Virus record (IMG/VR): IMGVR_UViG_2706794662_000011
Direction: 5' to 3' (one strand)
DNA length: 10,220 nt
DNA from: a virus
Lineage: Duplodnaviria; Heunggongvirae; Uroviricota; Caudoviricetes
The notes under the pieces were generated by a model that worked only from the letters and a program-made list of their open reading frames with translations, was not told the origin of the DNA and did not search any database. The position numbers and the translations under genes are program-made. Shown piece after piece: positions 3,124 through 6,997 of the stretch; position 1 is the first letter of the stretch, and the number at the start of each line of letters is the position of its first letter.

Positions 3124-3504
3124 ATGACCGAGCGCATAGAATTTGTTTTACCTTACCCGCCGACGGTGAACACTTACTGGCGTCGTCGTGGCAGCACATA
3201 TTTTGTATCAAAAGCCGGGGAGCGTTATCGCCGGGCAGTGGCGCTTATTGTTCGCCAGCAGCGGCTGAAATTAAGCCTGTCCGGAAGGTTGGCAATAAAA
3301 ATTATTGCAGAACCACCGGATAAGCGCCGCCGTGACCTGGACAATATTCTGAAAGCGCCGCTGGATGCGCTGACGCATGCGGGGTTGCTAATGGACGATG
3401 AGCAGTTTGATGAAATCAATATCGTTCGTGCTCAGCCAGTATCTGGTGGACGTCTGGGGGTGAAGATTTATCCCATAATGCTTGAAGGGCAGGTCAAAAA
3501 ATGA
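3124..3504 (+). CDS. rusA: RusA-family Holliday junction resolvase, 126 aa
   Basis: Motifs LPYPPTVNTYWRRRG and DKRRRDLDNILKAPLDALTHAGLLMDDEQ match the RusA family (catalytic acidic cluster). The ATG abuts the ydfU stop, and the position just before Q is canonical. Confidence 0.85.
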   Translation: MTERIEFVLPYPPTVNTYWRRRGSTYFVSKAGERYRRAVALIVRQQRLKLSLSGRLAIKIIAEPPDKRRRDLDNILKAPLDALTHAGLLMDDEQFDEINIVRAQPVSGGRLGVKIYPIMLEGQVKK

Positions 3505-4322
3505 AACTGGAAGATTTACCGAAATACTACTCCCCAAAATCCCCCGGCCTGACTGATGCATCGGCCTCAACGTCGAAAGATGCGCTGAGTATCACTGATG
3601 TGATGGCCGCGCAGGGCATGACACAGAATCGGGCTGAGATGGGGGTTTCTGCGTTCCTTGGGAAAATGGGCATTAGTATGAATGACAGAGAGCGGGCAAC
3701 AGAATTGCTGACAGAATATGCACTCAGTCGGTGTGATCGCGTGGCGGCGTTAAGAAAACTCCCGGCAGAAATAAAACCGGCAGTGATGCGTATTATGGCT
3801 TCGTATGCGTTTGAAGATTATGCCCGTAGCGCGGCGAGCAAAAAACAGTGCCCCTGCTGTCACGGAAAAAAATTTATTGAAAGCGAGGTTTTTACAAACA
3901 AGATCCAGTATCCGGATGGTAAGCCGCCGGTATGGGCAAAGTGTACGAAAGGTGTGTATCCGTCTTACTGGGAAGAATGGAAAAAAGTCAGGGAGGTGGT
4001 AAAAGTTGCCTGTCCGGAGTGTGGCGGAAAGGGTGAGGTTTCCACCGCCTGTAAGGATTGCCGTGGGCGTGGTGTCGCCATTCATCGTGAAGAGTCGGTA
4101 AAACGTGGTATGCCTGTTATCAGAGACTGCCAGCGTTGTGGTGGTCGTGGCTATGAAAGACTACCATCAACGGAGGCATTTAATGCTATATGCGAGGTGA
4201 CAAACCAGATAACACGCGCGTCATGGGAAAAAACAGTTAAGAAATTTTATGATGCGCTGGTGACCCGGTTTGATATTGAAGAAGCATGGGCTGAGCGGCA
4301 GTTAAAAAAGGTAACTAGGTAA
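3501..4322 (+). CDS. Late-gene antiterminator Q-like protein (phage 82/QuuQ type), 273 aa, with four CxxCxGxG zinc-finger repeats
   Basis: ATGA overlap with rusA. Lies directly upstream of a candidate promoter plus terminator. Repeats are CPCCHG, CPECGGKG, CKDCRGRG and CQRCGGRG. Confidence 0.6.
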   Translation: MKLEDLPKYYSPKSPGLTDASASTSKDALSITDVMAAQGMTQNRAEMGVSAFLGKMGISMNDRERATELLTEYALSRCDRVAALRKLPAEIKPAVMRIMASYAFEDYARSAASKKQCPCCHGKKFIESEVFTNKIQYPDGKPPVWAKCTKGVYPSYWEEWKKVREVVKVACPECGGKGEVSTACKDCRGRGVAIHREESVKRGMPVIRDCQRCGGRGYERLPSTEAFNAICEVTNQITRASWEKTVKKFYDALVTRFDIEEAWAERQLKKVTR

Positions 4323-4327
4323 CAAGG

Positions 4328-4355
4328 TTGATTTTTCCGGAATCTGTGGTAAATT
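4328..4355 (+). promoter_or_regulatory. Candidate late promoter (pR'-like), where a Q-utilisation site would be expected
   Basis: -35 TTGATT at 4328..4333, a 16-bp spacer ending in TGG (extended -10 TGn), and -10 TAAATT at 4350..4355. It lies between Q and the first downstream terminator. Confidence 0.4.
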
Positions 4356-4402
4356 CGTCATAACGATGGGCGTTTTATGCCTGACGTTAGAAGAGTTTCT
4401 AC

Positions 4403-4428
4403 AACCCGCCGCCGAGCGGGTTTTTTAT
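4403..4428 (+). terminator. Intrinsic terminator (tR'-like) about 50 nt downstream of the candidate late promoter
   Basis: Stem aacccgc, loop cgccga, stem gcgggtt, followed by ttttttat. Confidence 0.55.
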
Positions 4429-4546
4429 GACTGAAATCGCGTCAGTACAGTAAACGCGCTGGTGGCGGTGAATACCTGTCTTTCAGCTTGCTGGCTTTTT
4501 CGACAAGAGTTATTGGTGTGTCACGTTAACCGGAAAAGGAAAAGAC

Positions 4547-4744
4547 ATGCTAAAACAGCAGGATATGACAGAAACCGCCAGAGTGGTGTTTAATGAATTA
4601 AGCGTTACCGAACCGGCGACAGTCGGGGAGATAGCGCAGAATACTTACCTTTCACGCGAACGCTGCCAGTTAATACTGACCCAGCTGGTTATGGCGGGTC
4701 TGGCAGACTATCAGTTCGGTTGTTACAGACGCCTTCCGCAGTGA
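4547..4744 (+). CDS. Small putative winged-helix/HTH DNA-binding protein, 65 aa
   Basis: RBS aaggaaaag upstream of the ATG. The segment ATVGEIAQNTYLSRERCQLILTQLVMAGL looks like an HTH recognition region. It is the first ORF after the tR'-like terminator. Confidence 0.45.
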   Translation: MLKQQDMTETARVVFNELSVTEPATVGEIAQNTYLSRERCQLILTQLVMAGLADYQFGCYRRLPQ

Positions 4745-4771
4745 AGGCTTTTTTATTTGTGGTAAATGGGC

Positions 4772-4802
4772 GGCTGGTGGGTGTTAGGGGCACCCACCAG
4801 CC
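4772..4802. promoter_or_regulatory. Perfect 12-bp inverted repeat with a 7-nt spacer (GGCTGGTGGGTG ttagggg CACCCACCAGCC); candidate operator or RNA stem-loop
   Basis: Read directly. No T-tract follows on either strand. It sits between the HTH ORF and the methyltransferase. Confidence 0.5.
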
Positions 4803-4876
4803 ATCTGCTCATGCGTTGGGTTCACAAGCAAACCTCAGGCCCACTGCTTTGCGCAAAAGCAGAATGAGCCTATCAG

Positions 4877-5136
4877 NNNNNNNNNNNNNNNNNNNNNNNN
4901 NNNNNNNNNNNNNNNNNNNNNNNNNNNNNNNNNNNNNNNNNNNNNNNNNNNNNNNNNNNNNNNNNNNNNNNNNNNNNNNNNNNNNNNNNNNNNNNNNNNN
5001 NNNNNNNNNNNNNNNNNNNNNNNNNNNNNNNNNNNNNNNNNNNNNNNNNNNNNNNNNNNNNNNNNNNNNNNNNNNNNNNNNNNNNNNNNNNNNNNNNNNN
5101 NNNNNNNNNNNNNNNNNNNNNNNNNNNNNNNNNNNN
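4877..5136. other. N-masked gap (260 N); hides the 5' part of the methyltransferase gene
   Basis: Run of n characters. Confidence 1.
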
Positions 5137-5921
5137 TGATGCGTGAACGCTTCAGTGTGCTGAACCATATTATCTGGGCGAAGCCGTCCGGACGCTGGAA
5201 CGGATGCAACAAGGAAAGCCTGCGGGCGTATTTCCCCGCCACAGAGCGCATTCTGTTCGCGGAACATTATCAGGGGCCGTATCGTCCGAAAGATGCCGGG
5301 TATGCGGCGAAGGGCAGTGCACTGAAACAGCATGTGATGGCCCCGCTGATTTCTTACTTTCGTGATGCGCGAGCTGCCCTGGGGATAACGGCAAAACAGA
5401 TTGCAGATGCCACAGGAAAGAAAAACATGGTGTCGCACTGGTTCAGTGCCGGTCAGTGGCAGTTGCCGAATGAAAGCGATTATCTGAAATTACAGGCGCT
5501 GTTTGCCCGGGTGGCAGAAGAGAAGCATCGGCGTGGTGAACTGGAAAAGCTCCACCACCAGCTGGTGGATACGTATACCTCACTGAACCGGCAGTATGCG
5601 GAGCTGCTGAGTGAATATAAACATCTGCGGCGGTATTTTGGCGTGACGGTGCAGGTGCCGTATACCGATGTGTGGACGCATAAACCGGTGCAGTTCTATC
5701 CCGGGAAACATCCGTGCGAAAAACCGGCAGAAATGCTGCAGCAGATAATCAGCGCTAGCAGTCGTCCGGGTGACCTGATTGCAGATTTTTTCATGGGGTT
5801 GGGTTCGACAGTGAAAGCGGCACTGGCGCTCGGGCGTCGTGCAATTGGCGTTGAGCTGGAGACTGAACGTTTTGAGCAGACGGTTCGGGAAGTACAGGAT
5901 TTAGTCAGCCAGAACGGATGA
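5137..5921 (+). CDS. DNA methyltransferase, N6-adenine/N4-cytosine type (beta-class order), C-terminal 261 codons; 5' end is inside the N-gap
   Basis: Motif I-like FFMGLGST near the C-terminus, and HPCEKP. In the beta class the DPPY motif is N-terminal and would fall in the masked region. The frame is open right up to the gap edge. Confidence 0.7.
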
Positions 5922-6078: not shown

Positions 6079-6356
6079 NNNNNNNNNNNNNNNNNNNNNN
6101 NNNNNNNNNNNNNNNNNNNNNNNNNNNNNNNNNNNNNNNNNNNNNNNNNNNNNNNNNNNNNNNNNNNNNNNNNNNNNNNNNNNNNNNNNNNNNNNNNNNN
6201 NNNNNNNNNNNNNNNNNNNNNNNNNNNNNNNNNNNNNNNNNNNNNNNNNNNNNNNNNNNNNNNNNNNNNNNNNNNNNNNNNNNNNNNNNNNNNNNNNNNN
6301 NNNNNNNNNNNNNNNNNNNNNNNNNNNNNNNNNNNNNNNNNNNNNNNNNNNNNNNN
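6079..6356. other. N-masked gap (278 N)
   Basis: Run of n characters. Confidence 1.
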
Positions 6357-6504
6357 GAATCCCCCTGTGCGGAGGGGCAATCAGCGAGTAGGTATATGGG
6401 ATAATCGCGGATTCAGGTGCTGGTACTGAATTCACCGGGAGGCACCCGGCATCATGCAATGGCACATAGCGCCACTCTCCAGCCCTCTCCGGAGGGGCTT
6501 TTCT
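6357..6504 (+). ncRNA. Copy A of a structured ~150-nt repeat element ending in an intrinsic terminator; candidate small RNA
   Basis: Begins gaatccccctgtgcggaggggc at the gap edge. Middle hairpin ccggg-aggca-cccgg at 6435..6449. Terminator ccctc-tccg-gaggg plus ttttc at 6483..6504. No ORF of 60 aa or more. Confidence 0.35.
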
Positions 6505-6693
6505 GTGCCGGATACATCACAGTTTCTGGAACCTTAGGTACTACAGTATCAGTCAGGGTGCTATATTTTCAGATGTGATGAAAGCCTGTCAGCAGGCAGG
6601 GCGTATCGGAAATGACCCAGTAGAGAAAACGTTGACTCAGATACCGGTGCTGAGTTACCGGGAAACCGGCATCACATGACCGCTATCCTTCCA

Positions 6694-6721: not shown

Positions 6722-6823
6722 CTGCAGAAAACAGGTTCCCCGTTAAATGCTATGTTGCTCACAATTCAGTAAGTTGACAGTTGCCTGTCAGACTGGGCAT
6801 TTGTTAAAAAAATTTCGCATGGT

Positions 6824-6990
6824 GAATCCCCCTGAGCGGAGGGGCGACTGGTGACGGTATAATCTCTGATTATCAAAACGAGAATGACGCGGGTTTAGTG
6901 GCACCGGGCTGAACTCACCGGGAGGCACCCGGCACCATGTGCATGATGATACAGATACGCGGCTTTAGCCCCTCTCCGGAGGGGTTTTCT
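6824..6990 (+). ncRNA. Copy B of the structured repeat element; candidate small RNA
   Basis: Begins gaatccccctgagcggaggggc. Perfect TATAAT at 6858..6863. Shares with copy A the block tcaccgggaggcacccggca-catg and a terminator (cccctc-tccg-gagggg plus tttt at 6969..6988). Confidence 0.35.
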
Positions 6991-6997
6991 TGTGGGC

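Follow-up and report, generated by a model that had tools for sequence, protein, structure and literature searches.

A covarying, apparently two-state leader RNA ahead of an M.EcoGII-family methyltransferase gene in a lambdoid prophage

The DNA analyzed here is a 10,220-nucleotide (nt) stretch of the IMG/VR virus record IMGVR_UViG_2706794662_000011, hereafter referred to as the window, which is the late region of a lambdoid prophage resembling Shiga toxin (Stx) phages. At the head of its late, Q-antiterminated operon, a gene encoding a 65-amino-acid (65-aa) protein, a palindrome and a DNA methyltransferase gene follow one another. The initial annotation had likened this arrangement to C-protein control of a methyltransferase through a palindromic operator. 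Comparative sequence analysis identifies the palindrome as stem P1 of a structured 5′ leader RNA of ~130-150 nt, composed of three hairpins (P1-P3) and three short switch motifs. We consider it reasonably probable (roughly 60%) that this leader is a cis-acting, two-state translational gate on the toxic methylase at the head of the Q-dependent late operon, and that the 65-aa gene is a separate cassette.

All elements of the leader are read on the + strand. The 5′ switch motif, AUGGGC (4766-4771; (A/G)UGGGC in the family), is nearly invariant in 54 distinct leaders, the set on which the pairing and covariation counts given below were made. It is followed by the P1 stem-loop (4772-4802), whose arms, at 4772-4783 and 4791-4802, enclose a 7-nt loop and constitute the inverted repeat GGCTGGTGGGTG-N7-CACCCACCAGCC. 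As first described, this repeat has perfect 12-bp arms (100% complementary) about 30 bp past the small gene; it begins 27 nt after the stop codon of the 65-aa open reading frame (ORF). One perfect 12-bp repeat with a loop of 3-20 nt is observed in the window, and any such repeat was present in 18 of 2000 first-order Markov simulations of the window. Since no U-run follows position 4802, the palindrome was ruled out as an intrinsic terminator, in agreement with the earlier argument from the absent T-tract; the adjacent hairpin at 4731-4748 has the canonical form of one. The P2 stem-loop (4804-4832) pairs 4804-4813 with 4823-4832, with internal mismatches. After P2 comes the mid switch motif GGCCCAC (4838-4844; GGCCCA(C/U) in the family), which has two alternative partners, the 5′ motif (forming LRa) and the 3′ motif (forming LRb). 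The P3 stem-loop (4844-4862; 4844-4850 with 4856-4862) and, after it, the 3′ switch motif AUGAGCCUA (4864-4872; (G/A)UGAGCCUA in the family) complete the architecture.

Pairing in the three hairpins is maintained across divergent sequences. In P1, 95.5% of the alignment cells are paired, and both sides have changed in 11 of 12 pairs; the corresponding values are 91% and 6 of 8 pairs for P2, and 89.5% and 5 of 6 pairs for P3, giving double changes in 22 of 26 pairs. One P2 position is seen as C-G, A-U and U-A. Overall, 91-93% of cells are paired versus 28-44% in controls with slid partners, and the observed values were reached in none of 500 shuffles. Of 27 divergent leaders folded singly and without constraints between the conserved motifs, nearly all formed both P1 and P2. 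A first RNAalifold consensus, built from 24 sequences, missed P2 and returned the pairings of state B (described below) alone; P2 was recovered by means of a covarying position and divergent phages.

Perfect P1 arms are confined to the window and the relatives nearest to it. In the majority of relatives, the stem measures 12/13 nt, is interrupted by a bulge and contains G-U pairs; in Providencia and one Buttiauxella it is kept by compensatory changes that destroy the Chi octamer present in the window. Arms of unrelated sequence nevertheless pair in phiKO2 (CTGCAGCATG/CATGCCACAG), N15 (CGCGGGACGAG/CTCATCCCGCG) and VHML (ACCTGCCCC/GGGGCAGG). Because the stem sequence changes while pairing persists, these data point to an RNA structure rather than a protein-recognized DNA operator. 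Moreover, G-U pairs are frequent in the leader helices (e.g. U-G 16 times and G-U 8 times); as such pairs work on the + strand RNA alone, the structure belongs to the + strand transcript. The palindrome had originally been taken for either an operator or a stabilizing stem-loop. Pairing without sequence conservation speaks against the first of these, while the second survives and fits a static RNA element, a rival explanation considered below.

To delimit its distribution, IMG/VR was scanned with a loose pattern of the three conserved motifs and then with a covariance model comprising P1, P2 and P3 only. At all of the M.EcoGII-family methylase loci tested (lambdoid, N15-like and VHML-like phages), the model recovered the leader in front of the gene; it returned the leader in 0 of ~110 random pattern-matched contigs and also found the N15-type leaders that nhmmer alone missed. 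In the unbiased set, a methylase follows the leader in 56 of 56 loci. A small ORF stands upstream of 48 of these leaders and is absent from the remaining 8, three of which are main-family leaders. Phages with the leader and without the small ORF include Serratia OS31, phiKO2, N15, PY54, YDC107_1, Enterobacter Ravinvirus and Vibrio VHML. When genomes carrying the small protein were taken as the starting point (24 species-level loci), the methylase was located ~150 nt downstream in 23, upholding the co-occurrence of the two genes that had been proposed. At 82% column identity, the spacer is better conserved than the 65-aa protein, for which the identities are 53-98%. In Vibrio phage Valp1 (L119, 904-1180), the leader is followed by a different small gene (a 41-codon CxxC...CxxC ORF, annotated at 1040-1165) and then by the methylase. 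Decayed copies were encountered as well: a leader followed by unrelated sequence without methylase (L021, 4158-4285), a leader cut after P1 by an insertion (L038, 4201-4269) and a direct fusion of the leader with 3′ methylase gene sequence (L159, 2126-2259).

The gene downstream of the leader encodes an M.EcoGII-family beta-class N6-adenine DNA methyltransferase, of which the C-terminal 260 codons are visible in the window (5139-5921, + strand). This ORF matches PF01555 (N6_N4_Mtase; E = 1.3e-25) and carries FFMGLGST and HPCEKP, confirming the beta-class amino-methyltransferase that had been recognized from these motifs. A masked run of N (4877-5136, + strand) precedes it and, by homology with loci L001, L002, L003 and L005, covers ~18 nt at the 3′ end of the leader, the start codon AUG of the methylase and its codons 1-92, among them those of the DPPY motif. 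The leader of L003 is near-identical to that of the window (99.6% over 4323-4877). DPPY, expected by the initial annotation, is therefore hidden in the window itself and is found in its relatives, as IVTDPPYF near the N terminus in L003, L005 (Escherichia albertii) and L001, and at the expected place in L115. The resulting motif order is DPPY ... FxGxG, with FxGxG (FFMGLGS) near the C terminus in the window and DPPY read from the relatives, in which the methylase measures 349-352 aa. Of the 260 visible residues, 242 are identical in the methylase of phage 1720a-02, an enzyme named as very similar to M.EcoGII in PMC5778455. By sequence, the window enzyme is thus a member of the M.EcoGII family, through a link that is transitive via phage 1720a-02, and it is probably sequence-non-specific. 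A weak HTH_3 match (E = 0.022) lies in the central target-recognition region of the methylase, at 5361-5447 (visible-ORF residues 75-103; ALGITAKQIADATGKKNMVSHWF).

Murray et al. (2018, PMC5778455) describe M.EcoGII and M.EcoGI of E. coli O104:H4 as N6-adenine DNA methyltransferases that are non-specific and carried on prophages. By the same account, M.EcoGII is silent in the lysogen and harmful when constitutively expressed, toxicity and silence being reported in PMC6602927 as well; the passages of the 2018 paper covered here make no mention of the leader or of the 65-aa gene. Homologues with 50-80% identity adjoin the lysis cassette or stand at the head of the late operon in mEp460, SfV, Hafnia, Serratia, Klebsiella phiKO2, Yersinia PY54, N15, Aeromonas and Vibrio phages. 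No candidate restriction endonuclease was present among the Pfam-scanned window ORFs of at least 97 aa, all of which have phage functions, nor in the annotated relatives, in keeping with the earlier designation of the methyltransferase as an orphan. The accompanying suggestion, that an orphan methylase under late control could protect phage DNA, agrees with the published work on M.EcoGII and with the position of the gene in the Q-dependent late operon.

Besides the three hairpins, the leader can form a set of alternative helices, which are not part of the covariance model. LRa, between the 5′ and mid motifs, shows one double change, in L026 (G to A with C to U); its sixth pair is A-U in 8 and G-C in 3 sequences, with more G-C cases in new N15-like and Hafnia-like leaders. 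In LRb, between the mid and 3′ motifs, 6 sequences have A-U instead of G-C as the outer pair and 6 have U-A instead of C-G as the innermost, and in Serratia CGU/ACG replaces CAC/GUG. Furthermore, the 5′ motif can pair with the conserved GC(U/C)CA(U/C) of P2 (GCUCAU here), thereby extending P1 and breaking P2; 95.5% of cells are paired in this helix, a position that is A-U in the main family being G-C in VHML. Once released, the 3′ arm of P2 is able to pair with the 10-nt segment that stops one base short of the methylase AUG, and 4 of 6 pairs in that helix have double changes. All of these helices are 85-96% paired and each has some double or compatible changes, near-invariant cores limiting the power of the comparison. 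Forced in turn, LRa and LRb differed in energy by ~1-5 kcal/mol in 6 of 8 representatives, the gap being 6-11 kcal/mol for the leaders of Serratia and VHML. For Hafnia and PY54, the fold of lowest energy has GAGCCU base-paired to the Shine-Dalgarno sequence AGGC. The main family has no recognizable Shine-Dalgarno sequence before the methylase AUG.

In the mechanism that we favor, Q-modified RNA polymerase would read through the terminator tR′ and, in this lineage, also through P0, the terminator hairpin behind the 65-aa gene. The methylase messenger RNA would then start with a leader toggling between two mutually exclusive folds. State A would consist of P1, P2 and LRa, and state B of P1 extended by pairing of the 5′ motif with GCUCAU of P2, LRb, and the P2 3′ arm paired with the 10 nt before the AUG. 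One of these folds would occlude the methylase initiation region, so that the toxic enzyme would be made only, or only briefly, from late transcripts in lytic growth, where it would methylate progeny DNA against host restriction. Conservation, covariation, leader-methylase linkage and the protein folds are direct observations; translational gating, the identity of the ON state and the trigger, which could be a ligand, a protein or folding kinetics, are what we infer.

A number of points weigh against such a gate. The support for regulation by the leader comes from sequence and folding comparison. The counts for P1-P3 are biased towards these helices, the alignment having been fitted to a model that contains them. 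The sixth pair of LRa is an A.C mismatch in 42 of 54 sequences (the main family), and both LRa and the helix joining the 5′ motif to GCUCAU have nearly invariant cores, so that the support for these is mostly compatibility and not covariation. The fold that allows translation differs between readings of different clades. In addition, the ribosome-binding segment and AUG of the window copy are masked and its gene may be frameshifted: the run at 4877-5136 measures 260 nt, and of 116 relatives 115 have 292 nt there and one has 294 nt. The deficit relative to the 115, 32 nt, is not a multiple of 3. If the masks keep length, the window methylase would thus have a frameshifting deficit. A second masked run (6079-6356) measures 278 nt versus 243-246 nt in 13 relative loci; since this mask is off as well, either the prophage has indels at both places or the mask lengths are not faithful, and the intactness of the window copy cannot be judged from them.

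A bolder form of the proposal holds that the leader represents a new class of switching regulatory RNA, either a riboswitch, for example for S-adenosylmethionine (SAM) or S-adenosylhomocysteine (SAH), or a sensor of folding kinetics or of a protein, gating the toxic methylase in lambdoid, N15-like and VHML-like phages of Enterobacterales and Vibrio. Judged from the comparative data, we regard this as a tentative possibility, for which SAM or SAH could be natural candidate ligands of a methyltransferase leader. At gathering thresholds, no Rfam 15 family matches the leader (window, L001, L007 and L022), and permissive scans gave sub-threshold matches only. The best of these, RF03063 (Streptomyces-metK), on the minus strand of L009 (4184-4301), scored 24.7 bits versus a gathering threshold of 44.2 (E = 0.004 in a small search) and was judged a chance match because it lies on the opposite strand and is mostly driven by the G+C-rich P1 hairpin. 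The namesake of this family, metK, makes SAM. Matches to IsrK, STnc370 and Trp_leader (E ~0.5 or worse) are located on the tR′ region. We found no prior description of the leader in the open-access literature; one could exist.

Two further candidate elements of the leader were discarded. A hairpin AUCAG/CUGAU directly upstream of the AUG was ruled out by uncompensated U-to-C changes. In every leader, the 5′ switch motif offers a possible start codon in its (A/G)UG (ORF 4766-4873 here), and the peptide that would result is conserved in neither length nor sequence: MGGWWVL* in most leaders and genera, 35 aa here and MGAAA* in phiKO2. For this reason it is probably non-coding. Ribosome loading at this (A/G)UG could influence the fold of the leader.

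Alternatively, the leader might be a static RNA element, such as a protective 5′ structure, a ribonuclease (RNase) III/E site or a ribosome standby platform, that sets stability or low translation without switching. P1-P3 are indeed stable hairpins with strong covariation, as the stabilizing stem-loop of the initial annotation would be, and a weak or absent Shine-Dalgarno sequence could by itself keep expression low. We nevertheless regard this explanation as rather unlikely, as it accounts neither for the near-invariance of three single-stranded motifs across phages of Enterobacterales and Vibrio nor for the compensatory or compatible changes in mutually exclusive pairings and the near-isoenergetic states.

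Phage nucleic-acid enzymes are known to repress their own translation, examples of autogenous repression being T4 gp32, gp43 and RegA. By analogy, the leader could be a translational operator for a protein (the methyltransferase itself, the 65-aa protein or a host factor), exerting feedback or timing control. The conserved unpaired nucleotides in loops and junctions would suit a protein target, and M.EcoGII is reported to methylate rA in RNA (PMC5778455). The 65-aa protein is not a general partner of the leader, because it is absent from many leader-bearing phages, and we hold protein-operator control on the whole to be doubtful.

Control as initially annotated, with the 65-aa protein binding the palindromic DNA as an operator and controlling methyltransferase transcription in the manner of C proteins, was not borne out and appears very improbable. 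C proteins, which act as Xre-type helix-turn-helix (HTH) dimers, recognize C-boxes located 5′ of the C gene itself, and it is mainly the endonuclease whose timing they set. It is true that the 65-aa protein has a confident fold of DNA-binding type, that 23 of 24 species-level loci have the methylase next to the small gene, and that the repeat is perfect in the window. However, the fold is a winged helix and not of the Xre type, the site lies downstream of the small gene and behind a terminator, and no endonuclease was found in the window. The sequence of the palindrome is not conserved, pairing alone being retained (phiKO2, N15, VHML), and the arms of most relatives match imperfectly, owing to a bulge and to G-U wobbles, which in duplex DNA count as mismatches. 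Finally, the leader is tied to the methylase in all 56 loci and dispenses with the small gene in 8 of them, and in five phage groups.

Both arms of the palindrome contain the Chi octamer GCTGGTGG, a feature that had previously been overlooked. There are 10 such octamers in the 10.2-kb window versus 0.39 expected from shuffles, located at 837, 2232, 2290, 4458, 4773 and 5561 on the + strand and at 2696, 2748, 4794 and 5555 on the − strand. The average for the E. coli genome is ~1 Chi per 4.5 kb, and the window is several-fold above it. Densities of 0.8-1.7 Chi per kb are seen in lambdoid relatives, in which the late-transcript strand bears most of the sites; the N15 and phiKO2 loci carry none. 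A DNA-level role of the palindrome as an inverted Chi pair (a RecBCD-modulating hotspot) or as another DNA signal, which this abundance and the presence of the octamer in both arms might suggest, is the least credible of the explanations. It is rejected as the primary function in view of the many leaders in which the stem persists without Chi, the octamer being present in the 5′ arm of 33 and the 3′ arm of 5 of the 54 distinct leaders and missing from the stems retained in Providencia, Hafnia, Serratia, N15, phiKO2 and VHML. Chi may be an extra feature of the lambdoid lineage and not the reason for the hairpin. Inside the methylase gene, a 14-nt perfect palindrome CCACCAGCTGGTGG (5555-5568) contains overlapping Chi in both orientations and is also present in L003 and L005.

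The 65-aa gene (4547-4744, + strand) has an ATG start with an AAGGA-type ribosome-binding site 8 nt upstream. An AlphaFold2 model of its product (predicted local distance difference test, pLDDT, 92) is a three-helix winged helix, with MarR/OhrR/IclR DNA-binding domains and O-methyltransferase winged-helix domains as best structural matches (TM-score 0.7-0.8). In Pfam, the protein gives weak winged-helix matches only (TrmB, E = 0.0026; MarR_2; DprA_WH) and no HTH_3 match, and it has no match in NCBIfam. The putative HTH protein recognized at the outset is thus upheld, as a winged helix-turn-helix. In PHROGs it corresponds to phrog_331 (function unknown). Its family is small (334 clusters), all named members being from Enterobacterales, and the gene is intact in 22 of 25 loci examined.

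Upstream of the 65-aa gene, a promoter-like block on the + strand (4488-4516) is inferred from a −35-like TTGCTG (4488-4493), a 17-nt spacer and a −10-like TATTGG (4511-4516). The wider block CTTGCTG-N17-TAT(C/T)(T/G)G..TGTCAC (4488-4546) is conserved across genera, unlike the sequence 5′ of it, and could be a promoter or operator for the small gene. A sigma-70 scan did not call the promoter-like block, the −10 of which is poor. Between the 65-aa ORF and the palindrome stands P0 (4731-4754, + strand), absent from the initial annotation, a terminator hairpin called by a terminator scan (GCCTTC-CGCAGT-GAAGGC, 4731-4748, followed by TTTTTT) with the stop codon of the ORF in its loop. In other genera the P0 hairpin is kept with compensatory changes and its T-run is weaker. 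In N15-type phages, tR′ is joined directly to the leader by TTTTTTTGTGCCTGAAAAAGTGGGCG, and a similar sequence, TTTTTTATGACTGAAATCGCG, follows tR′ in the window, a pattern consistent with insertion of a cassette at that point. On the basis of the promoter-like block, the terminator and the continuity seen in N15-type phages, we read the 65-aa gene as a moron-like insert: it looks like a separate promoter-gene-terminator cassette between tR′ and the leader in one lineage, and it is not required by the leader. The tight linkage between this gene and the methylase may have a physical and not a functional basis.

The genomic context agrees with a late-operon location. The window carries a DUF968/HNH protein, RusA, a 273-aa Q antiterminator (3501-4322; PF03589 in Pfam), a tR′-like intrinsic terminator 3′ of the Q gene (4403-4428, + strand; terminator scan), which marks the start of the late operon, an ileZ-type transfer RNA (tRNA), a SASA-family esterase and a P21-type holin. 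In relatives, a terminator is found at the position equivalent to tR′, although the type of Q upstream varies. The order Q - small ORF - methylase - tRNAs - (stx) - esterase - holin is also found in Stx2a, Stx2c and Stx2d phages, phiP27 and SfV; phage 933W, in which the module was looked for, does not carry it. A 555-nt stretch that begins 3′ of Q, takes in the 65-aa gene and reaches into the leader (4323-4877) matches in 3136 of 5426 complete E. coli genomes, that is, more than half, the best match (99.6%) being in a prophage adjoining ompW.

Other RNA elements were noted in the window. The segment from Q to the tR′-like terminator (4340-4428) would yield a short promoter-proximal late transcript, the equivalent of which in Stx phages has been described as the regulatory small RNA (sRNA) StxS. 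Two Rfam matches to the STnc100 sRNA (6328-6510 and 6788-6997; 70 and 161 bits) lie between the tRNA cluster and the esterase gene, the first being partly masked; one copy is present at the equivalent site in the Stx2a phage L001, downstream of stx2B. In addition, an Rfam match to the sok antitoxin RNA (112 bits) overlaps a 70-aa ORF with a Hok-like C-terminal part (912-1087 and 1025-1237), which suggests a hok/sok-type toxin-antitoxin locus in the early-right region of the prophage.

Since M.EcoGII-type enzymes methylate every accessible adenine and harm the cell if freely expressed, phages must restrain them tightly; we found no description in the open-access literature of how they do so. 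A covarying, apparently two-state leader directly before the gene offers a concrete candidate for control of the methylase. If the proposal is true, a widespread RNA family would be added to the prophages of E. coli and Vibrio, and in Stx phages the leader would lie on the same late transcript as the toxin genes. The object of real interest is the structured, probably switching leader RNA, an orphan late anti-restriction methylase being already part of published work. The combination of small HTH gene, palindrome and methylase is not a C-protein module here, which corrects a tempting mis-annotation.

With C-protein/C-box systems (C.PvuII, C.AhdI, C.EcoRV), the locus shares a small HTH gene beside a methyltransferase gene and a nearby inverted repeat. 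It differs from them in its winged helix, in a repeat that lies downstream behind a terminator, in the lack of an endonuclease and in an RNA stem that is conserved without the protein. The 65-aa gene resembles prophage morons in being bracketed by a promoter-like block and an intrinsic terminator and absent from otherwise homologous loci, with the difference that its promoter is a predicted one. M.EcoGII and M.EcoGI share with the window enzyme PF01555, the beta-class motif order, the orphan state and the prophage location, whereas the window copy, known here from sequence, has a masked 5′ end and is possibly frameshifted. The leader itself most resembles translational riboswitches and attenuator leaders (1:2 / 2:3 / 3:4), in which a conserved multi-helix 5′ domain is followed by mutually exclusive pairings, as it may be here, where one of them would occlude the ribosome-binding region. 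Covariation in both alternatives and near-isoenergetic states in most representatives extend the likeness; the leader is set apart from these systems by matching no Rfam family and by a (A/G)UG mini-ORF whose peptide is not conserved.

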